Positions 2,963-24,961 of a stretch of 52,569 nt of DNA are shown one piece after another. The DNA is taken from positions 1 to 52,569 of the IMG/VR virus record IMGVR_UViG_3300020445_001331, one strand, 5' to 3'. Source of the DNA: a virus. Its lineage: Duplodnaviria; Caudoviricetes. Under the pieces are notes generated by a model. That model searched no databases, was not told where the DNA came from, and worked only from the letters and a program-made list of their open reading frames with translations. Numbering within the stretch: the stretch's first letter is position 1; the number at the start of each line of letters is the position of its first letter. The translations under genes and the position numbers were made by a program.

Positions 2963-2967
2963 ACGTA

Positions 2968-3016
2968 TATTTACCGAGCCAGGGTAGTTAAATACTCGGT
3001 TAATGGGCGGTAAATA
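2968..3016. promoter_or_regulatory. Back-to-back late-promoter-like CGGTAAATA motifs (9-bp perfect inverted repeat)
   Basis: TATTTACCG 2968-2976 and CGGTAAATA 3008-3016, with 5 nt and 4 nt between motif and ATG (2962 minus, 3021 plus); resembles T4 late TATAAATA. Confidence 0.6.
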
Positions 3017-3020
3017 CAGT

Positions 3021-5076: not shown

Positions 5077-5518
5077 AAAGAATATAGAAAAGAAACGTGA
5101 AGTTTATAAACTTGAAGATAGATATCGTAAAGTTTGGTATGATATTGATTTAGATAGATTAGAAGAACACGTTACTATATTAAATGAAGTTATTCCTGGT
5201 TATGTTTTAGACTATGGTAAAACTGAAAACAGTATGTACATAGACTATCACATTGTTCCTGGTACACCTGCCAATGAGTTTGCACATACTCCGCAGTTCA
5301 TTAAAAGGATACACGACTTTTGTGTAGAAACATTAGATCAAACAATGCCTTATGCACACTACGATTGGGTGTTAAGTAATATTATGATAGATGGCGAGAA
5401 TACATACTTTGTTGATTGGGATAACATAGGAATTTATTCGCCAGAAGAAATTAAAACAAAGTTAGAAGCAGATTTAAAATCAGCTTTTGGAGGAGCATAT
5501 GACCCCACAAGCATTTAG
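5063..5518 (+). CDS. Minimal protein-kinase-like phosphotransferase (APH/choline kinase/RIO-like fold)
   Basis: Catalytic loop HYDWVLSN (HxDxxxxN) followed by metal-binding FVDWD. Confidence 0.65.
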   Translation: MDLIKKNIEKKREVYKLEDRYRKVWYDIDLDRLEEHVTILNEVIPGYVLDYGKTENSMYIDYHIVPGTPANEFAHTPQFIKRIHDFCVETLDQTMPYAHYDWVLSNIMIDGENTYFVDWDNIGIYSPEEIKTKLEADLKSAFGGAYDPTSI

Positions 5519-6731
5519 CTATCCAATAGTAGCAAACAATGGAATGATTTATATTCCGCCATTTGGCTTAACAGAGTCTATTGACTATATGTTAAAGTTT
5601 AATCCTAAAGACGAAACGTTTACAAGAATTAAGTTAGACGTTAGCGATTGTACAGAAAAATGGATATGGGGAACTGCTTGGAGAAACAAAATTATTGTAC
5701 TACCTTACAACGAAGATAATATTCTTATTATAGATACAGACGATGATAGTGTAGAGTATAGTGAAGTAGAAAAAGGAAAAGGAAAATATATACAAGGTCA
5801 CATACACGGAGATAATTTATTTGCTTTACCTTATGGTGAACACGAACCATATGACTACGTATTAAATTTAGCTTTACCTTATATGTATCCAGACCAAGAA
5901 AAATTAAAGTTACCTACTAACGATTGTAAGAAGTGGCATACTACACAAATAATAGATGGAATTATATATGGGTTACCTAGAGGTGAAAGTTTAGATAATA
6001 GCTTTAATTATAGAATAGAATTTGATTGTAGTAATGAAGAATATGAATTAACAGATATGCTACCTGAATGGGAAGACTATGAACACGATGGCTTTAATAA
6101 TAAAAAGTATACTACAATGGCTAAGGTTGGCAATAGATTATATGCTCCGCCTTATAGTGAAAACCCTAACTTTGACGTATTAACTAAATTTGTTGATGGC
6201 AAATGGATTACTGAACGTACAGGTATTAAAGGAACAAGCAGAACATACTTTGCTCATAGTGTTGCAAGTAATGGTAAAATATTTTGCCCTCCAGCAGGAC
6301 ACGAAGAAACGTGGAGTGAAATGTTAGTTATAGACCCTTCAGCAGATAACGGTCATGATACATATTGGCACACAATTAATTTAGGTATAGGAAAAGAAAG
6401 TAAAAAATTCTTTGCAGGTGTTGAAAACAGTAAAGGATATCTTTACTTTATGCCAAGAGGTGGTTGCGTATGCGAACCTGAAAGTACTTGGAAAAGTCAA
6501 GGTGACTTAACAGAAATACTTAAACTAGATATTAGAACAGAAGAGTTTACTACAATAGATGTAAGCAAATTATTTAAAGATGATACAAGTATTGAAAAAT
6601 ATAATAAGTGCGTAATTTTAGATGACGTAATATATGCTTTCCCTTACGGACAATCTGAAGACTTTCATAAACTTTTAATATTTGATACTCTTACGGAGAA
6701 AGCAAGGACAGTGGATTTAAGAGATGTATAA
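5499..6731 (+). CDS. Repeat protein, predicted beta-propeller (about 8 blades; start revised to 5499)
   Basis: Repeats NGMIYIPPFG, NKIIVLPYN, DNLFALPYG, GIIYGLPRG, NRLYAPPYS, GKIFCPPAG, GYLYFMPRG, DVIYAFPYG; SD GGAGG before ATG 5499. Confidence 0.7.
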   Translation: MTPQAFSYPIVANNGMIYIPPFGLTESIDYMLKFNPKDETFTRIKLDVSDCTEKWIWGTAWRNKIIVLPYNEDNILIIDTDDDSVEYSEVEKGKGKYIQGHIHGDNLFALPYGEHEPYDYVLNLALPYMYPDQEKLKLPTNDCKKWHTTQIIDGIIYGLPRGESLDNSFNYRIEFDCSNEEYELTDMLPEWEDYEHDGFNNKKYTTMAKVGNRLYAPPYSENPNFDVLTKFVDGKWITERTGIKGTSRTYFAHSVASNGKIFCPPAGHEETWSEMLVIDPSADNGHDTYWHTINLGIGKESKKFFAGVENSKGYLYFMPRGGCVCEPESTWKSQGDLTEILKLDIRTEEFTTIDVSKLFKDDTSIEKYNKCVILDDVIYAFPYGQSEDFHKLLIFDTLTEKARTVDLRDV

Positions 6732-7863
6732 AGCATTTGAAGATCATTATAGAGAACTAGACATTAAGCATTTGTTATTAGCAGAGCATGATGGTGAGTT
6801 AATATCTCCACCCTTTGCAACTGAACTTTGTAAAGATTATAGTAAGGTGGCGGTTTTTGGGAATTCTGTTTCCTATATAGATTTAGATTTACCTCCTGTT
6901 ACAAGTAAAATTAATGCTACTGCAAGAGTTAATGGTAGCACTTGGTTAATTCCATATGGCTATTGGGACGAGTTTAGAACAGTAGTAGAGTTAAAAGGTA
7001 CTACACCTATATACCATACACTAGACAAAGGTGGTATGGGACAATTTTATGGTTGTGCTTCTAACGGAACTACTGCTTGTAGTTTTCCTTTAGGAACTTC
7101 TAATACATCTTTTTTACTATACATTGATGAAAAAGGATTGCATACACAAGACTTTGATGCTGAAATGAGAAAGAGTCATATGGGTACTGCATACTGTAAT
7201 GGAAGATATTGGAGTATGCCTAGAGGTGACTTTAGAAACTATAATGTATTAGTAAGTTATGACGGCAAAGATATAGTAAAGTATCCTATACCTGTTGACC
7301 ATACTTTAAGTAGAAAGTTTACAGATTTAATTCCAGTAGGAGATACGTTATACAGTTTGCCTTATGGTGAAACAGCAGGACTTACTCAAGTTGTAGAATT
7401 TAATACAGAATACAATAGTGTATCTACACACGAACTAAACGTTCCAGACTTTGCTAAAAAATATAATGCTCAAGTTTTAGTTGACGAAACTATTATTGGT
7501 GTACCATATGGTGACGGAGATGACTTTGAAAGTAAGTACGGTGTTGTATTTGATACAGTAACAAAACAAAGTAGACCTTTTGATATTGAAATAGGCTACG
7601 GTGGCAAGTATAGATTTAAATGCGGTATTGCATATAAAGGCAGAGCAATATTTTTGCCTAGTGGAACTCCTGGCTTACCTATTATAAGTGTAGCAACAGA
7701 TGGTACGTTTCATGCAACAAAAACGGACAACTCAAAGTTGTTTGGAAGACCTATTATATATAAAGAAAAACTTTATACCTTGGTTTTCAACACAATTGAT
7801 AACAGCCATTCTTTGGTTGAAATAGACGAATGGTTAAGGGTAAATGAGGTTACCAAAATATGA
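6724..7863 (+). CDS. Second predicted beta-propeller, divergent paralog of the upstream gene
   Basis: Same repeat type: GELISPPFA, STWLIPYG, ACSFPLG, RYWSMPRG, TLYSLPYG, TIIGVPYG, RAIFLPSG. Confidence 0.65.
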   Translation: MYKAFEDHYRELDIKHLLLAEHDGELISPPFATELCKDYSKVAVFGNSVSYIDLDLPPVTSKINATARVNGSTWLIPYGYWDEFRTVVELKGTTPIYHTLDKGGMGQFYGCASNGTTACSFPLGTSNTSFLLYIDEKGLHTQDFDAEMRKSHMGTAYCNGRYWSMPRGDFRNYNVLVSYDGKDIVKYPIPVDHTLSRKFTDLIPVGDTLYSLPYGETAGLTQVVEFNTEYNSVSTHELNVPDFAKKYNAQVLVDETIIGVPYGDGDDFESKYGVVFDTVTKQSRPFDIEIGYGGKYRFKCGIAYKGRAIFLPSGTPGLPIISVATDGTFHATKTDNSKLFGRPIIYKEKLYTLVFNTIDNSHSLVEIDEWLRVNEVTKI

Positions 7864-8978
7864 AATGTTTAGCCCCATGGCACAGCATTTTGGTACGTTT
7901 TAATGGTGATATTGTACCAGACGGAGTGTACAAAAATCGCTATGGTAACGTGCTTAAATCGTCTTTAAATGACGTCTTAGACAGCTTTACAGCGTCATAC
8001 ACTAAAGATTCTTTGCGTATGGGTCAACTACCACCCGAGTGCGAACAATGTGCTTTAAAAGAAGGTTCTGTAGGTCATAGTAGACGTTTATTCTTCCGTG
8101 ATATACTTAATCCAATGGTTGAAAATTTGGATTATGACTACTCAAAAAACTTCACAGATATAATGTTTTTGGAGTTTAATATGAGTAATATTTGTAACTT
8201 AAAATGCCGTATGTGTAATGGTATAAGTTCAAGTGCTTGGGTTAAAGAAGAAAAGAAATTGGCATCAATATCAGCTGATTATCAACGTCCTGTAGAACAT
8301 CCTGAGTTTGGTTATACAAATAAAAGTGAAGAAATTGTTGCTAGACTTTTTGAAGATCCAACACCATTTAAGAACTTACGTTACCTAAGTATTAAAGGTG
8401 GCGAACCTTATATGGAACCTGCTAATAAAATTATACTTAAGAAATTTATTGATTTAGGTATTGCTAAAAACGTTACTATCGATTGGACTACTAATGGAAC
8501 TATGGTAGATGAAGAAGTTGCCGACTTGGCAAAACAATACGGTCATACTAAATGGACAGTAAGTTTAGAAGGTACTGACGGACTTTATGAATACATTAGA
8601 GGCGGTAAGAACTTTAGCTTTGAACAACTTAATACCAACTTACAACAATATGACTTTGATAGAATAATAATTGCTGTAACTGTAATGACATACAATATTG
8701 CACACTTACACGAAATACAAAAATGGTTTGATAAAAATAAAAAGAGTAACTGGTCAATTTACTTTAACAATGTAGTGGCTACTCCGGCTTACTTAAATCC
8801 AAGAGTTTTACCTAATGATATTTTACAAGATATCAATCCTAAATTAAAAAATATAAATTATACAAATAACGGAAGTAACTTATTAGATACTTTTGTAAAT
8901 TATACAAAAGATTTAGATAAAATTAGAAACGACAATGTATTAGATCATTGTCCTGAGCTTACTAGGCTTTTTGTATAG
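7860..8978 (+). CDS. Radical SAM protein with degenerate N-terminal twitch-like domain
   Basis: MKCLAPW...CEQC, CNLKCRMC, KGGEP, TTNGT, SLEG. Confidence 0.88.
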   Translation: MKCLAPWHSILVRFNGDIVPDGVYKNRYGNVLKSSLNDVLDSFTASYTKDSLRMGQLPPECEQCALKEGSVGHSRRLFFRDILNPMVENLDYDYSKNFTDIMFLEFNMSNICNLKCRMCNGISSSAWVKEEKKLASISADYQRPVEHPEFGYTNKSEEIVARLFEDPTPFKNLRYLSIKGGEPYMEPANKIILKKFIDLGIAKNVTIDWTTNGTMVDEEVADLAKQYGHTKWTVSLEGTDGLYEYIRGGKNFSFEQLNTNLQQYDFDRIIIAVTVMTYNIAHLHEIQKWFDKNKKSNWSIYFNNVVATPAYLNPRVLPNDILQDINPKLKNINYTNNGSNLLDTFVNYTKDLDKIRNDNVLDHCPELTRLFV

Positions 8979-9510
8979 GATCCATACACACGTAATGAAT
9001 GTTTATGTGTTGTGGTTGATCTATTAACCACTTAACATATTTTCCAGCTTCTAATAAACTAATTTTATTTTTGCCGTCTTCACGTGCTTGTTGACTTTGA
9101 CTGTTTAGTTGACCAAATGCTATGTTAGTAACTCTTATATCACTATTACCCCAACAAGAGTCTTGACTCATCTTTTTACTCATGCCGTCTAGCATTAATT
9201 TGTTTTCTTTATAATTTTTAGGACTATATCCGCCTTCCCAATAAACACTTGTACTACTAATGTTTATAATATGTCCTTTTTCAAACTGATTATAAACTGC
9301 TTCTAGTATTTTATACTGTTGTCCATCAGGTCCATAAAGACTGTTTACAAATACATCATAATCTTTTGCATAGTTGGCGACTTTTTGTGCATCGTTCATA
9401 TCCCAACCGTTATGACGTCCTATAAACTCTACCATATTACGATTGTAGGCTTCCCATATACCTTTGCATAATCCTTCATAATTAGGATTACCTGTAATTA
9501 AAATTTTCAT
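8962..9510 (-). CDS. Short-chain dehydrogenase/reductase (SDR)-like protein (start revised to 9510)
   Basis: MKILITG..., DVFVN, IINISS, YKENK (YxxxK); ATGA overlap with the upstream stop. Confidence 0.75.
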   Translation of the reverse strand: MKILITGNPNYEGLCKGIWEAYNRNMVEFIGRHNGWDMNDAQKVANYAKDYDVFVNSLYGPDGQQYKILEAVYNQFEKGHIINISSTSVYWEGGYSPKNYKENKLMLDGMSKKMSQDSCWGNSDIRVTNIAFGQLNSQSQQAREDGKNKISLLEAGKYVKWLIDQPQHINIHYVCMDPIQKA

Positions 9511-9848
9511 GAAAAGTCCATTCTCCAAGGTAACATTGTATAACCCATTGGTGATAAAACGTATGTTTCAGTACAGTAAAGTATCACTAATGCAAATATA
9601 CTTTTAGCCCACCAAGGCCATTTTTTTACTCTGCTTAATAGTGGTCCTAATATCCATTCTAGTAATCTACTATATGCTGACCAAAAACGATCACTAATAC
9701 TATAAGGAGGAGTTTTTAATATTATAAGACCAAATGCTATCCACCATACCCAAGTTGGGTGTTCTTCACTTACTCCATATCCAAACATAAAAGGCAACAC
9801 TAATGCTGTTAGATATAATCCTATATATTTTCTTAAATGCTTAACCAT
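9507..9848 (-). CDS. Small multi-pass membrane protein
   Basis: About 3 hydrophobic, Trp-rich segments; overlaps both neighbours. Confidence 0.65.
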   Translation of the reverse strand: MVKHLRKYIGLYLTALVLPFMFGYGVSEEHPTWVWWIAFGLIILKTPPYSISDRFWSAYSRLLEWILGPLLSRVKKWPWWAKSIFALVILYCTETYVLSPMGYTMLPWRMDFS

Positions 9849-10041
9849 AATATTTGTCGTTTCCTTTGTGCCAACCTATATCTTGTATTGCGTCTGGCTG
9901 TGAACACTTTGGACATACCCACCATTCCTCTATGTTGTCATTGGTATTTAACTCTTGTGCTACTCCTCGCCAACCACAATGGCCGCATAACCAATTCCAT
10001 ATTTGATTCATGCCTTCTGCTAATGCTACGTTGTCGTCCAT
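9841..10041 (-). CDS. Small zinc-ribbon-like protein (66 aa)
   Basis: WLCGHCG...WVCPKCS (two CxxC); ATG at 10041. Confidence 0.6.
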   Translation of the reverse strand: MDDNVALAEGMNQIWNWLCGHCGWRGVAQELNTNDNIEEWWVCPKCSQPDAIQDIGWHKGNDKYYG

Positions 10042-10967
10042 TCCTCTTGTTCCTTCCTTATGTAGATGTCGCTTAAACAACTACAAATTTCTTTGCCACA
10101 AGTTATAGGTTCTGTTGGTAACTTGTATCTTTCTAAATTTCCTAAAGGTCCACCAAACTGGCAATCTGCTCGATACATATTTCCCCACATATCTATATTA
10201 ACACCATCTAAGCCAGCCCAACATTTCCAACCTCTAAACTTATTTTTTTCATCTAAGATTAATTGATTAGCATCAACTTCTTGATTCTCTTTAAACCAAT
10301 CACTAAATTGTATTTCCATTGAACCTCTGTGTAAGTCTTTATCGTTAATCTTTCTAGTAAAAGGCCAATTTTTTATTAAGTCTTTTTGCTTTGGTGTATA
10401 TGCAACTACTTCGTTTGTAATGTTATCGCTATACGTTTTATCAACAATTACTTTAGGCCATATTGTACAATTACTTGTATTACTAAAGATTTTTTCTGAT
10501 ACTGCAAATGCTTCATCAAAATCATCTGGTAGTAACATCATATTAATTATTGTTGTAATTTTAGATTCGTTTATTACTTCTATAAAATGATCTGGGTCTG
10601 CGTATGCTTTATGATAACTTAACATCATAGCATCTGTAAAAGGAGCAATACGTTTAAAGTACTCTGCACTTTGACTGCCGTTAGATACAAATGTAAATTT
10701 GTGTCCTTGCTCTTTAACACACTCAGCCATGTCTATAAAATGTTTCCAGTATGTAGGTTCTCCGCCACTAATTCTAAAGCAAATAGTTTTATCTTTTTGT
10801 TTAAAGTTTTGTATAAATCGTTCTACTGTTGACCACAAAGGTTGTCCTGTACTTCCGTTATGTAATATGTCTGGACAATATTCACAACGATAGTTACACT
10901 TATTAGAAAGTGTCCAACTGACTAGAAACCAGTCTTTTTTTGTAGGATCTTTGTAGCCTAACCTCAT
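10026..10967 (-). CDS. Radical SAM protein with short C-terminal Cys cluster
   Basis: CNYRCEYC, SGGEPT, SNGS; C-terminal CWAG...ADC...C...CSCLSD; paralog of 16228..17190. Confidence 0.88.
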   Translation of the reverse strand: MRLGYKDPTKKDWFLVSWTLSNKCNYRCEYCPDILHNGSTGQPLWSTVERFIQNFKQKDKTICFRISGGEPTYWKHFIDMAECVKEQGHKFTFVSNGSQSAEYFKRIAPFTDAMMLSYHKAYADPDHFIEVINESKITTIINMMLLPDDFDEAFAVSEKIFSNTSNCTIWPKVIVDKTYSDNITNEVVAYTPKQKDLIKNWPFTRKINDKDLHRGSMEIQFSDWFKENQEVDANQLILDEKNKFRGWKCWAGLDGVNIDMWGNMYRADCQFGGPLGNLERYKLPTEPITCGKEICSCLSDIYIRKEQEEWTTT

Positions 10968-11614
10968 TCGCTCATACTATGTTTAATGATCAAATCGTGT
11001 GTGCGTTCATTTAATTTTACAGTTAATATTAATGCGTGTAAATCATTTGAAAAGCTAAACACACTATGATCAAGTTGAAAGTTAATAAAATATAAAAAGC
11101 CTGGGTCAGGATAGAAAGGTTTTCCATCTAACATATGAACAAAGTTCTCTGGCTTACAACTTCCAAACACACATAGTAATCTAAAGTATTCCGGGTCAGG
11201 ACCTGGGAAGTCTCTGTGTGGTGGAAAGAATCCACCTTGATCTACTCTTAATAAATGTACTCTACCTATATCAGGTGCAAATACATCTACAAGTTTTGCT
11301 AGATCTGGAATTTCTTTATACACTTCTGTTGGAGTAGTAAAGTTTTCTTCCTTCATCTCAACGTCATGGTAACGTTGCATATAGCCGAAGCTGTTTAAGT
11401 GATAGTTGTCCATTACATCGCCTGAATGACTAGTAATAGGTAATCCCCATCTGTTGTTTACTGTATCCTTCTTTACGTTGTAAGGACACCAGTTGTCTGC
11501 GAACTTGTCTTTTAGTTGACGTTCGACAAGGTATGGATCTATCTTTAATTTAAGTTTTACTGTATCACCTAAATTAGTAAGACTGTTCCATAACATAGCT
11601 CTATTCATGTCCAT
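10964..11614 (-). CDS. AspH-like Fe(II)/2OG hydroxylase
   Basis: GRVHLLRVDQGGFFPPHRD...DHSVFS. Confidence 0.75.
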   Translation of the reverse strand: MDMNRAMLWNSLTNLGDTVKLKLKIDPYLVERQLKDKFADNWCPYNVKKDTVNNRWGLPITSHSGDVMDNYHLNSFGYMQRYHDVEMKEENFTTPTEVYKEIPDLAKLVDVFAPDIGRVHLLRVDQGGFFPPHRDFPGPDPEYFRLLCVFGSCKPENFVHMLDGKPFYPDPGFLYFINFQLDHSVFSFSNDLHALILTVKLNERTHDLIIKHSMSE

Positions 11615-12929
11615 TTATAAATTCTCCTAATTCTTTAAAAGTTTTGGTGTAATCTAACCCTCTAGTTTTATCGGTTACGGCCAAATACTCACGCAAAGCA
11701 GGTAGCTTATGACTCCAATCTTCTTGCATCATGTATTTAATCAGCCCTAACCATCTATCTCTGCCATATGGATTGTTACAAAACTCAAAATTAAACTTTT
11801 GTCTATCCACAAATGTTGTTATCTTATCTTTAACCCACAATTTTGCAGGTTCTGGTAACACTCTTACATTTAAGTAAGATGGCAAGTAAACTAAATGTGT
11901 TCCTATTATACCACCGCCGAACATTGATGGATTAATTTTACTAAATCCTTGATCCATTTTCCATTCAGCTAGTTCATCGATATAACCTGCGTTTAGTAAT
12001 TGTACTGCACAGGCAATATTAATAACTGTATTATCCTTTGTATTCTCGTCTAGTCTTTTTAAATTCTTTGTTATAGTTTCCCACTTACTAGGATAACGAA
12101 TATAGTCATTACGTTCACCAATAGCATCTATACTAAAGTTAAAACGTACTTCTTTAAAATGTCTCCATAAGTCAAACAACTTATCTGGTAGTTCTACTCC
12201 ATTTGAGTTGTATCTTAAATTACAATCTTTTGCATATCCTTCTTCAACCATAAACTCTAATATTTTATAATGCTCTGGTATTAGTAATGGCTCGCCACCT
12301 GCAAAATATAATTCTTGTATATTAAATGCTTGGTGTTTCATAGAATCTATAAACGATCCTTTTTTGTACCAAGTATAATCATATTGATCGTCCCAACCTT
12401 GGTCAGCAATTAAGTCTTTATTTTTATACTGCGGAGTTTGTATTTTCCATTCTTTAATCCAACTTGAACTATCGTGTGGGCTACACATTATACATTTAAG
12501 TTGACATAAGTTACCTAAACGTAAATCAAAGTAAGGAATGTCTACAGGTAAACTACCATCGTCTTTTGTACTAGCAATAAGTTTATCAAAGTCTACACGT
12601 TCTTGCCATTCTCTTGTTTCCCATTTACGTTTACTCATCATACCTTTTGCTTCTTCATTAAAACATTTTACGCAACTAGCAGGTATTTCGTTATTAAGCA
12701 TTTGAAGTCTAGTTCTTCTCATATGTTCGCTGTTCCATACTTCTTCTATTGTATGGTCACGTAGGTTCATAGCAATACCGTCTTTCTTAACAAGTCCTGC
12801 TGTTTTTACATCTGATAAATCATCTAGTATACCTGCACCACTGGCATTGGCAGTACAACAAACTCTAACATCTCCGTTAGGTCGTGTTGCTAAATGTAAC
12901 CAGGGTAATGGGCAAAATGTTTTATTCAT
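11601..12929 (-). CDS. Radical SAM protein with N-terminal twitch-like domain
   Basis: FCPLPW...NGDVRVCC...CVKC, CQLKCIMC, AGGEP, NSNG, SIDA. Confidence 0.9.
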   Translation of the reverse strand: MNKTFCPLPWLHLATRPNGDVRVCCTANASGAGILDDLSDVKTAGLVKKDGIAMNLRDHTIEEVWNSEHMRRTRLQMLNNEIPASCVKCFNEEAKGMMSKRKWETREWQERVDFDKLIASTKDDGSLPVDIPYFDLRLGNLCQLKCIMCSPHDSSSWIKEWKIQTPQYKNKDLIADQGWDDQYDYTWYKKGSFIDSMKHQAFNIQELYFAGGEPLLIPEHYKILEFMVEEGYAKDCNLRYNSNGVELPDKLFDLWRHFKEVRFNFSIDAIGERNDYIRYPSKWETITKNLKRLDENTKDNTVINIACAVQLLNAGYIDELAEWKMDQGFSKINPSMFGGGIIGTHLVYLPSYLNVRVLPEPAKLWVKDKITTFVDRQKFNFEFCNNPYGRDRWLGLIKYMMQEDWSHKLPALREYLAVTDKTRGLDYTKTFKELGEFINGHE

Positions 12930-13762
12930 TTTATTTGTTTACCTACAAGCTCTCCTAACTTTTTATAATCAAGCATTTTTCCTGTAAGTTTATACTCTTT
13001 CATATTTTCATAATTAATTGCTTCTAACGTAATACAGTCTCCTGTAATTTGTGCAAGTACACCTACGGCACTATGACAGTTACCATCTAATACTTTCATT
13101 ACAGTGAGTTCTGCCATTGCACAATAAAACGTTTCTAAATGATTTATTTGTCTTATTAAAGCTGTATATGGACTCATTGTACGTGTTTGCATAGCAATAA
13201 CTCCTTGTCCAACAGCTGGTAACATTTTATCAAAGCCAAACGTATGTGAAATATGGTCTATTAATCCTAATACTTCTACTCCGGCTCTTGCTAAAACAAC
13301 TGCATCATATTCACCGTCTTTTACTTTTCTAATTCTTGTTGGTACGTTACCTCTAATATGTTTTACTTCTAATGATTCATCTATTAAAGTAAGCTGTTCT
13401 AATCTTCTTGGAGATCCTGTTCCTACTACTGCACCAGGATGTAAACTTCCTACTACACACTCTCTAGGATCATTACGTTTTAAAACACCTGCAATAATTA
13501 ATTCCTTTGGCATTATAGTTGGCAAGTCTTTAAAACTATGTACTGCTACATCAATTGATCCAGCTTCTAATTCATCTTCTATTTTTTTACAAAATACTCC
13601 TTTGCCTCCAATGTCAGCTATAACAGATTCCTTATGAATGTCGCCGTCTGATTTAATAGGTACAATAGTTACTTTACAATCCAACTGTTCAAGTTTTTTT
13701 GTAACACTTTCAGCATATAATAATGCTAACTCACTACCTCTGCAACCTATTCGTACGTTCAT
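12926..13762 (-). CDS. hemC: Hydroxymethylbilane synthase (porphobilinogen deaminase)
   Basis: IGCRGSELAL, GGKGVF, DVAVHSFKDLP, VGTGSPRR, IRGNVPTR, PAVGQG, cofactor Cys in LDGNCHSAVG. Confidence 0.93.
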   Translation of the reverse strand: MNVRIGCRGSELALLYAESVTKKLEQLDCKVTIVPIKSDGDIHKESVIADIGGKGVFCKKIEDELEAGSIDVAVHSFKDLPTIMPKELIIAGVLKRNDPRECVVGSLHPGAVVGTGSPRRLEQLTLIDESLEVKHIRGNVPTRIRKVKDGEYDAVVLARAGVEVLGLIDHISHTFGFDKMLPAVGQGVIAMQTRTMSPYTALIRQINHLETFYCAMAELTVMKVLDGNCHSAVGVLAQITGDCITLEAINYENMKEYKLTGKMLDYKKLGELVGKQIK

Positions 13763-14367
13763 TTGTCCTTCCGTCCTATAATCATAAATCTTGTATACTT
13801 TTCTAACTTTAATTCAGCTTCGTCTGTAATACGTAATTTAGATCTTGTTTTAAACTGTTGTAAATCTTCACAGCAATTAATATGTTCTGGGTGATCAAAG
13901 TAATTGTTACTTTGTAAAATAATTTGACAACCTTCTGGAACATTTTCTAACCATTGATTATATTGATCACGTGTAATATGTTCGCAACTTGTATTAATAA
14001 TAAAGTATGGATGTCTAGTATATTCATAAGTTACCATATCGGCAGTTACAGCTTCAAATCTACCTTCTATCTCTTGACGTTTATTCATTGTTGTTGCTAT
14101 CTCTTTACATTTAGGATCAATGTCAACACTTGTAATATGTTTTATACCTAACTCACTATTAAAAATCATACTTGATAGTAATCCATTCCAGCCGCCAAAG
14201 ATAACAACTTCAGCATTTCTAATTTGCTTATGTTTTTCTAATGCGTCTATTAAGAATAGTTTAGATTGGATTTGTCCGCCCCAGAAACTTTCAAGAGTTC
14301 TGTCCCTATCTTCGCTATTGCGAATTGCGTCCATCCAAAATTTAATATCTTCAATCTCTATTTTCAT
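13759..14367 (-). CDS. Class I SAM-dependent methyltransferase-like protein
   Basis: VVIFGGWNG motif I, SVDIDP motif II, ADM, INTSCEH. Confidence 0.7.
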   Translation of the reverse strand: MKIEIEDIKFWMDAIRNSEDRDRTLESFWGGQIQSKLFLIDALEKHKQIRNAEVVIFGGWNGLLSSMIFNSELGIKHITSVDIDPKCKEIATTMNKRQEIEGRFEAVTADMVTYEYTRHPYFIINTSCEHITRDQYNQWLENVPEGCQIILQSNNYFDHPEHINCCEDLQQFKTRSKLRITDEAELKLEKYTRFMIIGRKDK

Positions 14368-15166
14368 TCCAAGCCTCAGGGCATATACTTTTCATTGCAT
14401 CTACAATTTCTGTTGTCACGTTTCTACGCACCTTTTCGTTATATTCTAGTGTTTCTTTTAACAAGGATAAATCTACATTTTCTTGTTGAGCAGAATGTAT
14501 TATTGCCTTAATATCTTTAGGAAAACAATGCCCACCAAAGCCACGTTCTCCTGTAACTTCAGTATGACTCGCTCCTATACGTGTATCTGCTCCTACACCT
14601 TTAGCAACTGCTTCATAGTCAATACCAACTGCTTTGCATAAATCGTATATTTGATTAAAGAAAGCAACTTTATTTGCTAAAAAGCTATTTCTAAAGTATT
14701 TAATCAGAATTAATTGGCGTGGATCTGCTAACATAAAGCTAGTACCACTGCCTAATGTAGTAGCAAACACTTTTTGCCAGAACTCTGTATTACCACCACC
14801 TAAAAATAAGTCTTTTGTGTTTAATAAGTCTTCTACTGATGTTGCATTACGTAAAAACTCTGGACTAAATGTAATTTCCTTCTGTGGAAATGCGTCTATA
14901 ATTGTTTCCCAGCCTTCTAAACTAATTGTACTTTTAATTAATATAGGGACATCTGGTGATTTTTCAATGCATTCATATACACTATTAACACTACACGCAC
15001 CATTCTCAAAAGAAGGTGTTGCTGTGCATATAATTACTGCATCAGTATCACTACTAAAACTTTTATGTCCTTTATATGGATCATATATTTCAACATCAAC
15101 GAAACTTCCTAATAATTGTTCGTGTGCTTGACCTACTGCTCCATATCCTGCTATTGTTATCTTCAT
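14351..15166 (-). CDS. UDP-glucose/GDP-mannose dehydrogenase family protein, lacking the C-terminal domain (271 aa; start revised to 15166)
   Basis: MKITIAGYGAVG, ICTATP, IKST, FSPEFLR, IKYFRNSFLA, GFGGHCFPKD. Confidence 0.85.
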   Translation of the reverse strand: MKITIAGYGAVGQAHEQLLGSFVDVEIYDPYKGHKSFSSDTDAVIICTATPSFENGACSVNSVYECIEKSPDVPILIKSTISLEGWETIIDAFPQKEITFSPEFLRNATSVEDLLNTKDLFLGGGNTEFWQKVFATTLGSGTSFMLADPRQLILIKYFRNSFLANKVAFFNQIYDLCKAVGIDYEAVAKGVGADTRIGASHTEVTGERGFGGHCFPKDIKAIIHSAQQENVDLSLLKETLEYNEKVRRNVTTEIVDAMKSICPEAWNENRD

Positions 15167-15246
15167 CTTTTCCTCGTTATTTTCTTTAGTAGCCATGTAG
15201 CAAACGCCATAATGGCCGCAACTAAGACTCCTATTCCTATTTTCAT
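15163..15246 (-). CDS. 27-aa membrane micropeptide MKIGIGVLVAAIMAFATWLLKKITRKR
   Basis: Fills the gap exactly with ATGA overlaps at both ends; hydrophobic helix plus basic tail. Confidence 0.65.
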   Translation of the reverse strand: MKIGIGVLVAAIMAFATWLLKKITRKR

Positions 15247-16235
15247 TTCTTCTCCACAAATTGTTCACGTAACTTATCAAAGCTACCACATTGTTTTGAA
15301 CATTCTTTTAATCCACAAGTTGTCCATTGACTGCTTATTAAGTCAAAGAACCCACTATCAAATATTTCTTTTAAACTTTCGTCGTGTAAGTTAGGAAACC
15401 TTTTAACTTTCATCATATAATCCATCTTACTTGGAAACAGTTGAGGCATCCATTTTAAATCTAACCAACAGCAAGGAGCAACATCACCACCTGCACTAAT
15501 ATATAACATATGATCTTCAACTGCTTTACAATTAATCTTTGGTAATTTTTCTTCTCTGGCCGCTTCAGCTGGTGCTATCATTTCTAAACTTTTATCTGAC
15601 GGATATAACGTATCAACTTTATTCCATTTTTCATCTATAACATCAAACTTTCCATCTCTAAAACGTGTTGTATGTTTTACTTGAAATTCTTTAAAGCCTA
15701 ATTCTTTAGATAATGCACGACAGTCTTCAAGTTGATGTTGATTGTGTTGAAAGACTAACATATCCCAACGTGCTTCTCCGCCAGCTTCAATAAATGTTTT
15801 TGCATTTTCTATAATTTTATCCCAATTGGTGTTTACTCTATATCTAGAATGTGTATCTGCTAATCCGTCAATACCAAATGCCGCTACAACTTTTATTTTT
15901 GCAAGTTCTCTCCACCATTGTGCTACACGACCACTTCCGTTAGTGTGCATTGTTAAACCCATTGTTTCATTATTTCTTCTTAAGTATTGATATATTTCTA
16001 ATGTATCTTTTGCTACAATAGGATCGCCTAGGTTACCACACATATTTAGGTGCCATAGTTGTTTTATAAATTCAGGACTAAACCATTTTTTAAATAATTC
16101 TATATCAACTTCTGCCAAAGTAATAGAGTCAAGTAGAGGACCACCATGCACACGTCTAGCACACATAGGACATTTCGCTTGGCATTTAGAAGTAACTTCT
16201 AAGTGTATCGATTTTATGTCTTCTAACTTATACAT
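15243..16235 (-). CDS. Radical SAM protein with C-terminal SPASM/twitch-like motif (start revised to 16235)
   Basis: CQAKCPMC, CGNLGDP, HTNGS, FGIDGL; C...VAPCC...CSKQC. Confidence 0.88.
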   Translation of the reverse strand: MYKLEDIKSIHLEVTSKCQAKCPMCARRVHGGPLLDSITLAEVDIELFKKWFSPEFIKQLWHLNMCGNLGDPIVAKDTLEIYQYLRRNNETMGLTMHTNGSGRVAQWWRELAKIKVVAAFGIDGLADTHSRYRVNTNWDKIIENAKTFIEAGGEARWDMLVFQHNQHQLEDCRALSKELGFKEFQVKHTTRFRDGKFDVIDEKWNKVDTLYPSDKSLEMIAPAEAAREEKLPKINCKAVEDHMLYISAGGDVAPCCWLDLKWMPQLFPSKMDYMMKVKRFPNLHDESLKEIFDSGFFDLISSQWTTCGLKECSKQCGSFDKLREQFVEKK

Positions 16236-17190
16236 TCTTTTCCTTTGGTATCTTACTATCTGCACTACTAACACACGTTGGAGTTATGCAAGGCATTGGT
16301 GCTTTAAATAGTTCAAAGCCTTCGTCTAACGTTCCTAAAGGTTCATCATGACAACTATAACTACGTTTTACTTCACCGCCTGGTTCACGTATAATACAGC
16401 TTTGATATCCTGACCAACAATTCCAACCTTTAAACTTATTAAAGCCATAAGCATTTAATCTTTCTGCTTGGTCAATCCAATACTCTACTCCATCATCGTC
16501 TTTGAGTACGATCTGAGGTTCATCTTGATTGTTTTCATTTTGGAGTATTTCTTTTTGTTTAGCCGTATAGCCAGACACCACAAAACTAGCAGTAGGATCG
16601 GACTGAGGTTTAAGAGTGACATGAAGACCAAGGTCACTAAATCTTTTACTTCTATCATAATATTCCTTCCATAACTTTGGTACCATAACTTGATTAATAG
16701 TTACTAGTACTCCATTATCTTGCAAATATAAAAGTTTATCTGCAAACTCTTCTTCATTGGCAAATTCGGCATGAAAACTCGCAGTAATACTTCTTCTATG
16801 AAGTACATCTGTTGCATCAAGCCAGCGTTTCCACCAACGCTTACTCGGGCTACAATTAGTTGTCATATGAATACTAAGGTATTTGCTTTGTATATCATTA
16901 GCATAATGTTCAATTAGCTGTAACAACTTCTTATATGCTGTAGGTTCACCGCCACTAAAACTAAAATGAAAATCATTAAAGCCGTTTTCTCTTGCTTGTC
17001 TTTTTATTTCATCTATATTTTTAGTATATACTTCTAATGGTCTGTGATCTAAAATTTTACTTCTAGCATAAGGCCAACAATAACTGCAATCGTAGTTACA
17101 AAAACGTCCAAGGATCCAGGACACAGAAAATACTTTGTTTTCTAACATATTTTTTTGTCCTAGTTTTACAACCTTGTTAAATGGAATCAT
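16228..17190 (-). CDS. Radical SAM protein with short C-terminal Cys cluster
   Basis: CNYDCSYC, SGGEPT, TTN; CWSG...SYSC...C...CVSSAD. Confidence 0.88.
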   Translation of the reverse strand: MIPFNKVVKLGQKNMLENKVFSVSWILGRFCNYDCSYCWPYARSKILDHRPLEVYTKNIDEIKRQARENGFNDFHFSFSGGEPTAYKKLLQLIEHYANDIQSKYLSIHMTTNCSPSKRWWKRWLDATDVLHRRSITASFHAEFANEEEFADKLLYLQDNGVLVTINQVMVPKLWKEYYDRSKRFSDLGLHVTLKPQSDPTASFVVSGYTAKQKEILQNENNQDEPQIVLKDDDGVEYWIDQAERLNAYGFNKFKGWNCWSGYQSCIIREPGGEVKRSYSCHDEPLGTLDEGFELFKAPMPCITPTCVSSADSKIPKEKNV

Positions 17191-17860
17191 TCATTTCCTC
17201 CATTTCGAACTGTCGTAGTAACCAATCGAAGTCATTTATTAACCCCAGATCCACCCCGTCAGAAAGGCCAAACCGCATACCAGCATTAGCACCTCGAATC
17301 GCAAACTCACAAAATCTTCCATTAGCTTTAGTAGTCCATACTTTGAGTCTTTCATTTGTTTCTCCTTCTTCTTGTCTATCTATAACTTTGCTACTTAATT
17401 TTGCACATTCTCTAAAAGCACTTTTCCAAGTGCTAAAAGGATCTGAATTGAAACTAGTAACATTACTCACGAATGGCATAGCCTTAAACCTATCAGATAT
17501 ACTTGTAGTCATATCAGGACTACTAACATCTACGTTCATAGTGAGTCGTCGTGGTAGGAGTTTAACACCACCATAACCGTAAATGAGATTGTTGATAGGA
17601 TTTCGGCTACGCCAAACATGGACACAATCTAAATCATATTCATTTACTTTATGATCTAAATTGAATTCTGGTAATAAATCTGCATCGCCATCGATAACCC
17701 AAAACATTTTTGTTGAACATTTCTTCGCGGCGGCAATGTGAGCTTGATGTATTCCTTTAACACCATGTATTCTTTTAGTATTAGGATAACGTTCTAGTAA
17801 ACGTTTATATCTTTCATCAGCATCAGGTTCATTATAACTTATAAAAACTACATCATACAT
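17177..17860 (-). CDS. GT-A-fold glycosyltransferase-like protein
   Basis: DVVFISYNEP...AH...C...FWVIDGD (DxD), YGGVKL, W..AFRE; paralog of 23487..24377. Confidence 0.65.
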   Translation of the reverse strand: MYDVVFISYNEPDADERYKRLLERYPNTKRIHGVKGIHQAHIAAAKKCSTKMFWVIDGDADLLPEFNLDHKVNEYDLDCVHVWRSRNPINNLIYGYGGVKLLPRRLTMNVDVSSPDMTTSISDRFKAMPFVSNVTSFNSDPFSTWKSAFRECAKLSSKVIDRQEEGETNERLKVWTTKANGRFCEFAIRGANAGMRFGLSDGVDLGLINDFDWLLRQFEMEEMNDSI

Positions 17861-18752
17861 AAGGGTCTAGCTCGTGTGCCAGTTGCTCCTGTAAAGTTCT
17901 ATCCGGGTGACAGTTATCAGGAAACAATGGGCTCTCCTCCATAATTTTAATTACTGCTTCGTAATCATCAACTATGGCTTTAAATTCGTTTTCCGGTCCT
18001 TGCGGTATGTTAGGTATATTAAGTTCTGGTTTTTGTCTTTGGAACAAACGCAAACTTTCCGCGGCACTTTCCGTTAAGTCTGGTCTACGTCTTCTAATAT
18101 TATCTACAGTCTGCCAACTACTAAACATTGGTACAGGTCTTTTAATAATATTGGCCATCCAGTCTTTATGAATATGTTTTACAAACGTATGATGTTCCTT
18201 TAATTCTACTTTAGTCCAACCTTCTATGATTATCCAAGGTATGTTAGTTTCTTCATATATTTTTTGAGCACCATCTAATGCGTGTTGTAATAATCCGTCA
18301 TTTATTTCTTTTATTGTTTTTGCGTTTTGCACAAGATTATTTGTAGCTTCGTAGTATTTGTCTAAATCATATAGTCCTGCTTCATCTGATAATTTGTTTA
18401 AATCTCTACAAGGTTCAGTGATCATCCATACAATACAATCAGGATTGTAAAATGTAGGACTTGTAAAGCAAGGTGCTAGTCCTAGTGCTTCTTCTACTTT
18501 GTATAATGCTTGAAAGTTACCACAACCACCAAACGCATAATTAACTGTTGCGTGACCTTTTTGATCTAAGTAATAACCAAAGCCTGGCCATACAACTTGA
18601 AAAGGTTTAGGGTGTTGAGTTTCTAAATACTTGTCTTTGTTCCAAGGACGAAACACTTCTGGGTGGTCAGGATTTGCACAACTAGGTCCTGGTATTATTG
18701 TACCCCATTCTCCTAGTGCGTTACTATCACCTGCTATTAATATTTTGCTCAT
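17853..18752 (-). CDS. SGNH/GDSL hydrolase or acyltransferase-like protein
   Basis: ILIAGDS block I, GGCGN block II, C-terminal DNCHP. Confidence 0.6.
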   Translation of the reverse strand: MSKILIAGDSNALGEWGTIIPGPSCANPDHPEVFRPWNKDKYLETQHPKPFQVVWPGFGYYLDQKGHATVNYAFGGCGNFQALYKVEEALGLAPCFTSPTFYNPDCIVWMITEPCRDLNKLSDEAGLYDLDKYYEATNNLVQNAKTIKEINDGLLQHALDGAQKIYEETNIPWIIIEGWTKVELKEHHTFVKHIHKDWMANIIKRPVPMFSSWQTVDNIRRRRPDLTESAAESLRLFQRQKPELNIPNIPQGPENEFKAIVDDYEAVIKIMEESPLFPDNCHPDRTLQEQLAHELDPYV

Positions 18753-19870
18753 CTAGTGTTACCGTAATAAATTACCTTATTAGGTCCTTTATAAGTTCTC
18801 CATGGATCAAATACAGTAACGCCTTCAGGGGTCCAATCGTTTTCGTGTACTAATACGTATATGTGTGGTTTCTCTGTTACAATATAACCACCATGTTGTT
18901 TTACATAATGTTGAACTAATAAACTATAACTTCCGTCAACATATTTTACTCCCGGCTTATAACTGTCGCTACTAAACCTAATTCTATTTCCATACTTTAA
19001 CATTTCAATAGCCATGTTTTCAGCTTGTTTTTCTCTTGCATTCATTACAGCGTCAAATATGTCGTAACCTAATCCAAGTTCTTTTGCCATGTATCGTAAC
19101 GCAATATTGTCACGTGGGTGACAAGCACCTCCATCTCCCATTCCTGCTTTCATATAAGCACGACTAATAATTCTTTGTGTTGATTCTGCAAGTGCTTTAG
19201 TAACTACATCAACATTAATGTTACCTTGCTTTTGTGCTACGTCCTGCATCATATTAACAAGACCAATCTTTGTACTAATAAATGTATTATAGAAAACTTT
19301 AATACACTCACACTCGTCCCAAGTACCTACTTCATAACGTGGATTATTTTCCATACACGTTTCATAAAAGTCTTTAAGTTGTTTTGCATCACCTGTTAGT
19401 GAACCGTCTTCAGTTCCAATCATTACCATCTCTGGGTTAACCATATCCCAAGCAACTGTACCCATAGCAATAAGATATGGATTATAAACAAAGCGAGTGT
19501 TAGTTACTATTGGCACAAATTCTCTACGTGTTGTTCCAGGTAATACTGTACTAATAAGAACAAGCAACTGGTCTTTAGTCATAAATTTGTTTGCTTCTTC
19601 TAAACACTCTTTTACAATTTTGTAGGAAAAATCTTTAGGTTCTAAATGGGCCGTAGGAGCTCTGCCATCATAGGCTGGGTCGTGTGGTGTAGGAACAGCA
19701 ACAAACACTATGTCTTGACCTGCTACTGCTTCTGCGATAGTATCTTTTACTTGTATATGATCGCTAGTTACTTTTACAATGTCGTAACCGCTTACTGTAT
19801 GTCCTTTTTGTGCTACTGCTTCTGCACAAGGTAAACCTAATTTACCTAATCCGATAAAACTAATCTTCAC
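18749..19870 (-). CDS. UDP-glucose/GDP-mannose dehydrogenase family protein (GTG start)
   Basis: IGLGKLG, FVAVPTP, ISTVLPGTT, IKVFYNTF, GDGGACHPRD; SD GGTAGGAG. Confidence 0.88.
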   Translation of the reverse strand: MKISFIGLGKLGLPCAEAVAQKGHTVSGYDIVKVTSDHIQVKDTIAEAVAGQDIVFVAVPTPHDPAYDGRAPTAHLEPKDFSYKIVKECLEEANKFMTKDQLLVLISTVLPGTTRREFVPIVTNTRFVYNPYLIAMGTVAWDMVNPEMVMIGTEDGSLTGDAKQLKDFYETCMENNPRYEVGTWDECECIKVFYNTFISTKIGLVNMMQDVAQKQGNINVDVVTKALAESTQRIISRAYMKAGMGDGGACHPRDNIALRYMAKELGLGYDIFDAVMNAREKQAENMAIEMLKYGNRIRFSSDSYKPGVKYVDGSYSLLVQHYVKQHGGYIVTEKPHIYVLVHENDWTPEGVTVFDPWRTYKGPNKVIYYGNTR

Positions 19871-19876
19871 ACTAAT

Positions 19877-19924
19877 CTCCTACCATTAAATGCGTATATA
19901 AATATAGTAGTATTTATGGTAGGA
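19877..19924. promoter_or_regulatory. Face-to-face late-promoter-like motifs inside an inverted repeat whose arms are the two RBSs
   Basis: TATAAATA (+) 19897-19904; CATAAATA (-) 19911-19918; arms TCCTACCATTAAAT 19878-19891 and ATTTATGGTAGGA 19912-19924. Confidence 0.65.
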
Positions 19925-19932
19925 AATCTGAT

Positions 19933-21243
19933 ATGAAACAGCTTCATGGCTTTTTAGAAATGAACCAATATGTGACAGATCCCTTGTCTATCCAAACTCA
20001 GGTTAATTTACAAGAGGCTTTTGACACTTTGGGCATACCAAATGACGATATTACGGTAATGTCTGTATTAATTCAGTATCCTACGTGGAAAAAAGATACC
20101 GATTTCTATAGATTTATAAAGCCAAAAGTTAGAAAACAACTACGCAAAGATCCAAAAACATTTTTCTTCTTTGATGCAAGTACTGAAGGATTTAGTACTA
20201 TCTATAGTGAGCCATATTATCATATTCTATATAAAATGATACGTGATTGTAATATTGATCCTAAAAGAGTATTTTTTGTTTCAAGTAATATGCGTGATCA
20301 ACAAAACCTTATAAGATTTAATATGGAAGAAAAAATACTTGATGTTGAACCATTTAATGTAATTTCTTATCATAACTTTGAAAGAATGATATTTGGCGTT
20401 GAAGGGCAAAAAGAAATAGAGATGGATCCTGGAAAATATAATGTAACTTCTGATGCTACTACTGATGCTATTGTTAGAACTAGATTTAAAAAGGCAGTAA
20501 AAAATACAAGAAGATTATATCGTGATAAAGTACATAACAAAGTAGGATTAGCTTTAAGTAGATTAGTTAGACCACATAGAACTTATAGTGCTATGGATAT
20601 ATTTCATAGCGATGAATTTAAAGATATGTATGTAAGTCATGCTACTTTAGATGGAACTAATTTAGATTGGTTAATAAACCAGCCACCATTTAGAAATAGC
20701 AAATTTACTAAAGCAGATCTAAATATATTTAAACGTCAAGTTGTACCTTTAGTAGTAGATACAGATGACTTTAAAACTAATCATGCTATGGCATTACACA
20801 GTAATTTAAATGATCAAACATTGTTTCAAATAGTACAAGAAACGCATATAGACGATTGGCAAGGCACTAGTTTATTTTATAGTGAAAAAACTTTTAGAGC
20901 AATATACCATATGGAACCTTTTGTAATATGGGGACAGCCTGGGTGTAATAAACGTTTAGTAGATTATGGTTATAAAACTTATGGTGATTGGTTTGATTTA
21001 AGTTTTGATGATATACATGATCCAGCAAAAAGGTGGGAAGCTCTATGGAAAGAAGTTAGAAGTAAGATTAAACTTATACGTGAAATGAAAAGTGTAGAAG
21101 ACCAAATACAATGGAAATTTAAAAATGAACAAGTCCTAATGGAGAACTTCCGTACACTACTTGAAGGTAAGTATAGTAAAGATATTTTTAAAGAAACAGC
21201 AAAGAAAATGAGAGAAATAGCAGATGCAACAACAACTGTATAA
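19933..21243 (+). CDS. Putative glycosyltransferase-like protein (GT10-like C-terminal motif)
   Basis: ET...FYSEKTFRAI...PFVIWG resembles the SEK...P..WG motif of GT10 fucosyltransferases; family call uncertain. Confidence 0.5.
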   Translation: MKQLHGFLEMNQYVTDPLSIQTQVNLQEAFDTLGIPNDDITVMSVLIQYPTWKKDTDFYRFIKPKVRKQLRKDPKTFFFFDASTEGFSTIYSEPYYHILYKMIRDCNIDPKRVFFVSSNMRDQQNLIRFNMEEKILDVEPFNVISYHNFERMIFGVEGQKEIEMDPGKYNVTSDATTDAIVRTRFKKAVKNTRRLYRDKVHNKVGLALSRLVRPHRTYSAMDIFHSDEFKDMYVSHATLDGTNLDWLINQPPFRNSKFTKADLNIFKRQVVPLVVDTDDFKTNHAMALHSNLNDQTLFQIVQETHIDDWQGTSLFYSEKTFRAIYHMEPFVIWGQPGCNKRLVDYGYKTYGDWFDLSFDDIHDPAKRWEALWKEVRSKIKLIREMKSVEDQIQWKFKNEQVLMENFRTLLEGKYSKDIFKETAKKMREIADATTTV

Positions 21244-24377: not shown

Positions 24378-24961
24378 ATTATTTCCTCATACTTATAACT
24401 GTCAAACTTCTTAATAGTATACACTGAAATTGGCTCGTTGTCAAACTCAAATTTCTCGCTAAATGGTAATACAAAGTATTTTCCATCAATTAGTTTATCA
24501 AAAGAAAACTTTAATGTCTTATATAAGATATTTGGATCGTTTTTCTTTGTACAACTAAAGCTAATTGCTGAATTTGTTAAACTAATTTTTTGAGCTAATA
24601 TATTCATTTCTAAATCGCCGCCTACTGTAAACTTCCAACAAGTATCTTTAACATTTTTAGTTACTGTAATATCTGGGTTTTCTGCTTCTGCTGGTAGTTC
24701 GTGTATTAAGTCATCTACAAAGTAACTGTCTATATCATGATTAGTACGTTGTCTAAGTTCATATGTTTTAGTTCTTTTAACATAATGTACATAATAGAAG
24801 TTCATGCTTTCTTTACCTTCTATTATTCCTTTAACTTCATCGTCAGCAATAGAAATATAACTTCCTTCTGTTGGCTTTACGTTAGGTAAAGATAGTAGTT
24901 CTCCTGTTATAGGATCAAATACTGCATAACGTTCATTAACTACTGTAATAGATAGTTTCAT
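24374..24961 (-). CDS. Hypothetical protein
   Basis: 195-aa ORF with ATGA overlaps on both sides. Confidence 0.7.
   Translation of the reverse strand: MKLSITVVNERYAVFDPITGELLSLPNVKPTEGSYISIADDEVKGIIEGKESMNFYYVHYVKRTKTYELRQRTNHDIDSYFVDDLIHELPAEAENPDITVTKNVKDTCWKFTVGGDLEMNILAQKISLTNSAISFSCTKKNDPNILYKTLKFSFDKLIDGKYFVLPFSEKFEFDNEPISVYTIKKFDSYKYEEII

Follow-up and report, generated by a model that had tools for sequence, protein, structure and literature searches.

What would a phage gain from a gene for a middle step of tetrapyrrole synthesis? The question is raised by the IMG/VR virus record IMGVR_UViG_3300020445_001331 (Duplodnaviria; Caudoviricetes), of which the whole stretch of 52,569 nucleotides, here called the window, was analysed. 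An ATG-to-TGA open reading frame (ORF) on its minus strand (12926..13762) encodes HemC, a compact hydroxymethylbilane synthase (porphobilinogen deaminase) of 278 amino acids (aa), with leucine at position 219. The hemC gene is probably an auxiliary metabolic gene by which the phage keeps tetrapyrrole flux going in the cell it infects. In this account, which we infer rather than observe for enzymatic activity, timing, host identity, benefit to the phage and end product (haem or bilin), HemC would polymerise four molecules of porphobilinogen on its Cys-bound dipyrromethane cofactor to give hydroxymethylbilane during infection, and would keep or raise host tetrapyrrole flux toward haem and, in this lineage, probably onward to bilins. 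Wegner et al. (2024; PMC11480375) apply the same logic to viral alaS, for which it is proposed and partly demonstrated.

The family and fold of the window protein are those of cellular HemC. It scored 256.8 bits on TIGR00212, the NCBIfam hemC equivalog (cut-off 164), 212.2 bits on PF01379 (cut-off 22.1) and 31.2 bits on PF03900 (cut-off 26), and it matched solved porphobilinogen deaminases from Arabidopsis, Vibrio, E. coli, Bacillus and human with E values of 2e-40 to 2e-30. An AlphaFold2 model based on a 24-sequence alignment (mean predicted local distance difference test score (pLDDT) 93; predicted template modelling (TM) score 0.90) has a three-domain fold of the periplasmic-binding-protein type, with the cofactor domain at the C terminus, and superposes on the E. 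coli enzyme, 1PDA, with a Foldseek TM-score of 0.91 and a root-mean-square deviation of 2.0 Å; the top 22 Foldseek matches listed were all porphobilinogen deaminases. When the protein was aligned with 107 homologues (27 viral, 80 cellular), 45 columns showed ≥90% conservation, and it kept 43 of them, the exceptions being L222M and R219L. The catalytic aspartate and the arginines that bind substrate and cofactor are shared with the E. coli enzyme: D79, R8, R119, R120, R137 and R143 correspond to E. coli D84, R11, R131, R132, R149 and R155, the E. coli numbering being assigned by alignment and from PMC3945110. The cofactor cysteine, C229 (E. coli C242), is invariant both in this 108-sequence alignment and in a second alignment (A1) of 18 compact sequences with 6 Pelagibacter-type HemC proteins. 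A preliminary description of this DNA had called the product a clear porphobilinogen deaminase of 278 aa with the cofactor cysteine kept. The length and the cysteine stand, and so does the assignment as a label of family and fold; as a statement of activity it goes too far, because the equivalent of E. coli Arg232, a near-universal arginine, is replaced by Leu219.

Compaction is the most visible departure from the cellular enzymes. All 80 cellular HemC genes sampled from a species-genome collection encode 302-344 aa, so that the window protein, at 24-66 residues less, is short, as had been remarked. It groups with proteins of 275-282 aa, plus a few fragments, and the trimmed viral HemC clade as a whole spans 273-296 aa. 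In alignment A1, four deletions relative to Pelagibacter-type HemC are common to all 18 compact sequences: the first removes about 5 residues behind helix 1, the second 7 residues ahead of GAVVGT, the third 4 residues of domain 3 and the last the C-terminal tail of 10-12 residues. The shortened loop before GAVVGT and the motif GTGSPRR had both been pointed out previously; GTGSPRR (RTGSPRR in one case) occurs in 14 of the 18 compact sequences and GTSSPRR in the other 4.

The relationships of the viral proteins point to a donor. In the species-genome collection the best cellular matches were HemC proteins of Pelagibacteraceae (39-45% identity), and no cellular HemC in it was more than 45% identical to that of the window. 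A quick tree of 97 sequences gave approximate likelihood-ratio (SH-aLRT) support of 98 to the compact viral clade, 96 to Pelagibacteraceae and 94 to their union. A careful tree of 58 of these sequences (12 viral, 12 Pelagibacteraceae, 34 other), the root of which was not inferred, gave ultrafast bootstrap/SH-aLRT values of 100/99, 98/91 and 100/95, respectively. The phylogeny that had been suggested as a means of identifying the donor lineage thus places the viral clade as sister to Pelagibacteraceae HemC. The viral sub-clades share only 47-52% identity with one another. Read most simply, the gene was taken up a single time, long ago, from a SAR11-related lineage and has since diversified within phages. 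On this reading the donor would have been a SAR11-like (Pelagibacteraceae-related) alphaproteobacterium, and the shortening would have followed the transfer.

The clade is widespread. In a first scan of IMG/VR, 15 further viral loci (71-100% identity) proved to share the gene order of the window for more than 10 kilobases (kb). In a second scan, which used an alignment of more distant compact proteins, 227 of 239 pattern stretches encoded a relative; 80 of the 227 were kept. The number of stretches carrying the clade is at least 227. Among isolated phages the picture differs: tblastn of HemC against INPHARED matched 10 records, all at <40% identity and two of them titled Salmonella enterica, and searches with HemC and HemE likewise gave only <40% identity, several of the records being titled as or resembling bacterial contigs. 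The view that hemC is an uncommon phage auxiliary gene is correct for isolated phages but does not hold for uncultured marine viral contigs.

For the analysis of genomic context, ORFs were called in 84 sources, comprising 83 loci (two duplicates dropped) and the window; one source has a hemC fragment at its edge only. The products were clustered and representatives annotated with Pfam and NCBIfam. The trimmed clade occurs in at least five contexts: besides that of the window, beside hemE, hemF and hemB, with gp46/47-like genes and a SegE-type endonuclease, with ribonucleotide reductase genes, and near alaS. The gene upstream of hemC encodes a gp46-like SMC/AAA protein (preceded by a gp47-like phosphoesterase) in 25 of the 83 loci, a 202-aa protein, as in the window, in 22, HemF in 12, a DUF3307 protein in 10 and others in 14. 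Downstream lies hemE in 26 loci, a gene for a 73-aa protein followed by a SegE-type GIY-YIG endonuclease in 20, an N-terminal-twitch radical S-adenosylmethionine (SAM) gene in 18, the endonuclease directly in 9, and other genes or the contig end in 10. The SegE-type homing endonuclease just downstream of hemC in the gp47/gp46 context may explain cassette mobility. Many hemC ORFs in that context (L152-L166, e.g., L160:6790-7554) are only 245-247 aa long and do not reach the final part of domain 3.

Several of these contexts hold further genes of the pathway. In 12 loci (L136-L139, L141-L143, L146-L150; e.g., L139:7112-10641) hemF, hemC, hemE and hemB follow one another in that order, and all four products are trimmed (272, 273, 325 and 282 aa). 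These loci adjoin a phosphoribosyl pyrophosphate synthetase gene, and a fatty-acid desaturase and a lipase are encoded nearby. In two other loci (L140:5542-8850 and L151) an AlgH-like gene, alaS, a 2-oxoglutarate-Fe(II) oxygenase gene and hemC (285 aa) occur in order; this alaS, two genes upstream of hemC, scored 535 bits on TIGR01821 (cut-off 338.55), and in these loci hemC shares a contig with the viral alaS known from the literature. The window itself carries a second haem-pathway gene that the preliminary description overlooked, a hemE for a uroporphyrinogen decarboxylase of 311 aa (24958..25893, minus strand), which scored 223.6 bits on PF01208 (cut-off 23.9) and 246.7 bits on TIGR01464, below the equivalog cut-off of 302.95. 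This hemE sits between a gene for a 279-aa glycosyltransferase-like protein, which in the ESM Atlas looks like a nucleotide-sugar transferase, and a gene for a 195-aa protein of unknown function. Proteins 56-100% identical to its product make up a large group of 304-343 aa, plus fragments, and the next tier of matches, at about 40% identity, measures 333-363 aa.

Five large hemC-bearing contigs were searched in six frames with hidden Markov models (HMMs). Besides hemC, hemE was found in three of the five, hemB in one, hemF in one, heme oxygenase in three and a ferredoxin-dependent bilin reductase in two; ferrochelatase was found in none of them. Heme oxygenase is on the contigs of L122, L139 and L104 (G003-G005), and in two of the five the bilin reductase lies within about 300 bases of it. 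The contigs are 71-128 kb long and rated 16-33% complete, which implies genomes of several hundred kb. A viral tetrapyrrole toolkit of alaS, hemB, hemC, hemE, hemF, heme oxygenase and ferredoxin-dependent bilin reductase probably moves among large marine myoviruses as cassettes of one or a few genes. Such a toolkit would reinforce the route from 5-aminolevulinate to coproporphyrinogen and protoporphyrinogen, and heme oxygenase and bilin reductase would carry on to bilins.

How hemC entered the window can be read from its edges. It had been described as inserted without a spacer between a methyltransferase gene and a radical SAM gene, with ATGA overlaps on both sides. The overlaps are present at 13759..13762 (left edge, minus strand), where the stop codon of the gene for the 202-aa protein (13759..14367, minus strand) overlaps the hemC start, and at 12926..12929 (right edge, minus strand), where the start of a 442-aa N-terminal-twitch radical SAM gene (11601..12929, minus strand) overlaps the hemC stop. 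The radical SAM assignment is sound (NF033640, 406.7 bits against a cut-off of 170, with PF04055 and PF13186), whereas the methyltransferase is a lead at the level of fold. No Pfam, NCBIfam or PHROG match was obtained for the 202-aa protein. In the ESM Atlas it falls, with a score of 0.99, among viral clusters that carry the automatic name "methyltransferase domain-containing", and its model, of low confidence (pLDDT 65.9), matched class I SAM-dependent transferases in Foldseek at TM-scores of about 0.5-0.57, first nicotianamine synthase (0.57) and then many methyltransferases near 0.5. It is probably a class I SAM-dependent transferase, and "methyltransferase" is a reasonable label for its predicted fold.

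Orthologues of both flanking genes are far commoner in IMG/VR than hemC in this context (163 stretches for the twitch radical SAM gene, at least 581 for that of the 202-aa protein), and the interval between them could be compared across relatives. From 117 fetched locus entries with both genes on one strand, 68 distinct interval sequences were obtained. Thirteen contain hemC. Twelve contain nothing, the flanking genes abutting or overlapping, and the remaining 43 contain genes other than hemC: a 52-aa zf-CHCC gene (6), a 332-aa radical SAM/SPASM gene (19), an Asp/Asn-hydroxylase-like gene together with the 332-aa gene (11), or larger inserts, including a PCMT-type methyltransferase (7). At an empty site (e.g., L180) the gene for the 202-aa protein and the radical SAM gene overlap by ATGA, and at filled sites ATGA is found at both edges of hemC. 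The gene is therefore an inserted, optional cassette whose translational coupling is preserved, as the claim of insertion without a spacer had it; since related contigs have the slot empty or otherwise filled, the neighbours do not need hemC. In the window lineage the cassette would have been dropped precisely between the transferase-like gene and the radical SAM gene, and since the start and stop overlaps were kept, we propose that hemC is expressed with the operon. The gene is under purifying selection in phages: among 10 hemC genes of the window's context (context A), pairwise ratios of nonsynonymous to synonymous substitution rates (dN/dS) were 0.07-0.28 in all 45 pairs.

The locus is real and recurrent. 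The interval 11500-14500 was spanned in one contig (7.8-13.6 kb) in all three DNA sequencing runs assembled, which come from three studies, with 1, 3 and 5 differences, none of them inside hemC; therefore the junctions, for which a check of read support had been advised, are genuine and not a product of assembly, and the Leu allele persists stably in nature. At ≥95% of sampled words the same interval was found in 17 runs from 11 studies dated 2014-2025, some of which may be the source sample. Within hemC, at 13568-13612, short contigs from other organisms pile up to summed depths of 31-258 over a background of 8-15 in the three DNA runs; this is not a feature of the phage, because the DNA there encodes the universally conserved HemC lid motif GGKG(V/L)F.

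A number of observations weigh against a role in sustaining host flux. The phylogenetic support comes from a careful tree in which many sequences failed the composition test, named Pelagibacteraceae among them (12 listed and 12 more), and in which the bootstrap correlation was 0.984 where 0.99 was wanted, so that it is not fully settled. The evidence for transcription is a single 171-nucleotide contig from an RNA library, which covers 12884-13051 over the junction of hemC and the radical SAM gene without differences. In the alignment of this RNA run 3 of 30 bins were covered, and in the other RNA runs 0.00-0.07 of words were found, coverage that speaks neither for nor against a given level of expression; since DNA carry-over is possible, the contig is a weak hint of co-transcription. 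No hemD was found (PF02602, E ≤ 0.1) in any of the five large related contigs, which are fragments and do not prove its absence, nor was a HEM4/hemD match (Pfam, E ≤ 0.01) found among the larger ORFs of the window, itself a fragment rated 14% complete; the viral set as found therefore cannot run the pathway alone. A further objection concerns position 219, which by alignment and by counting back from Cys242 corresponds to E. coli Arg232 and human Arg251. The conserved domain-3 arginine by which HemC is characterised is absent from the window protein: the position holds Arg in all 107 aligned homologues, and in the 120 best database matches it holds Arg in 118, Gly in one and Leu in one, the last being the window's own 99% cluster. 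PMC3945110 counts R232 as an active-site residue and includes R232H in its list of mutations that harm activity (citing Jordan and Woodcock, 1991), and two further papers describe Arg251 as important for structural stability (PMC7907807) and as contacting the cofactor carboxylates intermittently (PMC7959689). Three more residues conserved in the clade are changed in the window protein (D101E, L222M and D228N), and our own three-taxon arithmetic on pairwise values puts dN/dS at about 0.24 for the window branch and at about 0.07 for its sister. The replacement of this near-invariant arginine, which the preliminary description overlooked, looks suspicious.

The substitutions and the branch ratio give substance to the strongest alternative, that the clade as a whole is active while the window lineage's copy is relaxed or partly disabled, with synthase activity lowered or lost, and persists by linkage in a packed operon or through residual function. 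The change from Arg to Leu took two base substitutions (CGT to CTC); CGT is kept by the sister viral alleles, and Leu219 is found in the identical contig L001 and the variant P0001. The substitutions at the other clade-conserved sites and the elevated branch ratio fit such relaxation, as does the terminal branch of the window protein, which in both the quick and careful trees is five times longer than that of its sister (0.20-0.21 against 0.04). However, the ORF is intact and its model confident, the branch dN/dS is still well below 1, and the allele is identical in three assemblies, its surrounding 3 kb recurring in runs over more than a decade of dates. The 99%-identical variant P0001 retains Leu219 and differs from the window protein only by S/A, L/I, K/R and L/I exchanges, a pattern that fits constraint. 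The severity of R232 substitutions is, moreover, taken here from secondary sources. On balance, loss or lowering of activity in this lineage is unlikely.

A second alternative, which we consider very unlikely, would take the enzyme out of haem synthesis altogether: HemC, the SAM-dependent transferase and the twitch/SPASM radical SAM enzymes would together make a modified pyrrole or tetrapyrrole. The triad of 202-aa gene, hemC and radical SAM gene is kept in all 22 context-A loci that have an upstream flank, the ATGA overlaps join hemC to both partners, and the RNA-library contig bridges hemC and the radical SAM gene. The altered arginine could mark a changed reaction, and the radical SAM proteins of the surrounding cluster are faintly similar to tetrapyrrole-modifying enzymes of the NirJ/Ahb type, far below cut-offs. 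Against such co-option, the two flanking genes occur without hemC between them in 55 of the 68 slot sequences, the same HemC clade is found in four other contexts without these neighbours, and all through the operon it is usual for the stop of one gene to overlap the start of the next. It is next to impossible that mis-assembly or binning attached a host hemC to a phage contig, for although the contig is metagenome-derived and HemC is normally cellular, three independent assemblies cross both junctions, 15 other viral loci of the first scan have the same gene order, no HemC in the species-genome collection comes closer than 45% identity, and G+C content is even across the window (0.31-0.37).

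The modular cluster around hemC (3003..23490, strand not assigned) spans about 20 kb and holds eight genes of the radical SAM type (at 3003, 4006, 7860, 10026, 11601, 15243, 16228 and 22117), four of which (4006, 7860, 11601 and 22117) belong to the N-terminal-twitch subfamily NF033640, together with two nucleotide-sugar-dehydrogenase-like genes (14351 and 18749) and genes of unknown function. Asp/Asn-hydroxylase-like genes at 81-737 and 2267-3211 accompany the cluster, which varies gene by gene among related contigs, like a cassette array.

The window appears to come from a large marine myovirus, since it is a virus record of even G+C content whose baseplate has its relatives among jumbo phages. 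Its proteins matched tail-fibre, tail-collar and baseplate-wedge PHROGs, and among deposited phages the baseplate wedge is closest to those of Salicola SCTP-2, Sinorhizobium Phosso, Agrobacterium Atu_ph07 and RaK2-like phages (30-33% identity). Megablast of 12 kb of the window against INPHARED gave no match. A single ORF of 4908 aa (35221-49947, minus strand) lies directly upstream of tail-fibre-like genes and downstream of the baseplate-wedge gene, and recalls the giant VrlC-like protein of pelagimyophage host-recognition clusters described in PMC7029224. Identity as a classical pelagimyophage was considered and set aside, the best matches of the baseplate wedge being jumbo phages and the CheckV completeness of the 52.6-kb record being low, at 14%.

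The window gene can be set beside both cellular and viral systems. From cellular HemC, including that of Pelagibacteraceae, the nearest lineage, it differs in its four clade deletions, in its identity of at most 45%, in lacking the Arg232 equivalent, and in being phage-encoded and away from haem genes other than the distant hemE. Among viral genes, the closest parallels are valaS and the viral hemO-pcyX/pcyA cassettes (Wegner et al., 2024; PMC11480375), which are likewise tetrapyrrole auxiliary genes on marine phage contigs, with nearest homologues in Pelagibacteraceae and carried singly or in small cassettes. The parallel extends to shared contigs, with alaS two genes from hemC in two loci and hemO and bilin reductase on hemC contigs. 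Viral alaS serves another pathway step and was shown there to be active, and it was read in the same way as we read hemC; for viral HemC, activity is predicted. That paper notes that further tetrapyrrole genes are suggested by sequences from pelagiphages and cyanophages, and its main text and 11 of its supplementary files contain no mention of hemC, porphobilinogen deaminase or hydroxymethylbilane.

In the "deep ecotype" gene list of Zaragoza-Solas et al. (2020; PMC7029224), one sentence mentions porphobilinogen deaminase, together with coproporphyrinogen oxidase, among the genes found only in a pelagimyophage thought to come from deep water; 10 supplementary files of that paper make no mention of porphobilinogen deaminase, and the paper gives the gene no analysis. 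A cluster for host recognition that it describes, in which a giant protein occurs along with radical SAM cassettes, resembles the window, while the window, a record 14% complete, has its nearest baseplate relatives in jumbo phages, not in cultured pelagimyophages. Ferrochelatases have been reported in pelagipodophages (PMC9599517). Our literature search, which largely excluded subscription journals, found no paper on hemC as a phage auxiliary gene or in viral contigs, nor on uroporphyrinogen decarboxylase in pelagiphages. Phage hemC is known in print from a single line, and haem-pathway phage genes are widespread but barely described.

A bolder picture can be drawn, although we think it rather doubtful. 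Large marine phages may carry most of the route from glycine and succinyl-CoA to bilins as mobile, trimmed cassettes (alaS, hemB, hemC, hemE, hemF, heme oxygenase and bilin reductase), with the host supplying only hemD, protoporphyrinogen oxidase and ferrochelatase. Viral HemC would then be a natural minimal enzyme, and the loss of the Arg232 equivalent would mark an altered reaction, for example in chain elongation or product release, tied to the radical SAM cluster.

Phage tetrapyrrole genes have so far come mainly from the catabolic end of the pathway (heme oxygenase and bilin reductases), with the first step, alaS, added since 2024. Uncultured marine phages carry genes for middle steps as well, namely hemB, hemC, hemE and hemF, which lie on hundreds of contigs and are frequently neighbours. 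With these genes in view, it becomes a testable question why phages whose hosts are non-photosynthetic marine bacteria put resources into making haem or bilins. Comparison of occupied with empty slots provides a clean example of the splicing of a single gene into a phage operon with translational coupling kept. For enzymology, the clade offers a naturally minimised HemC of about 275-280 aa, and the window a natural Arg232-to-Leu variant.

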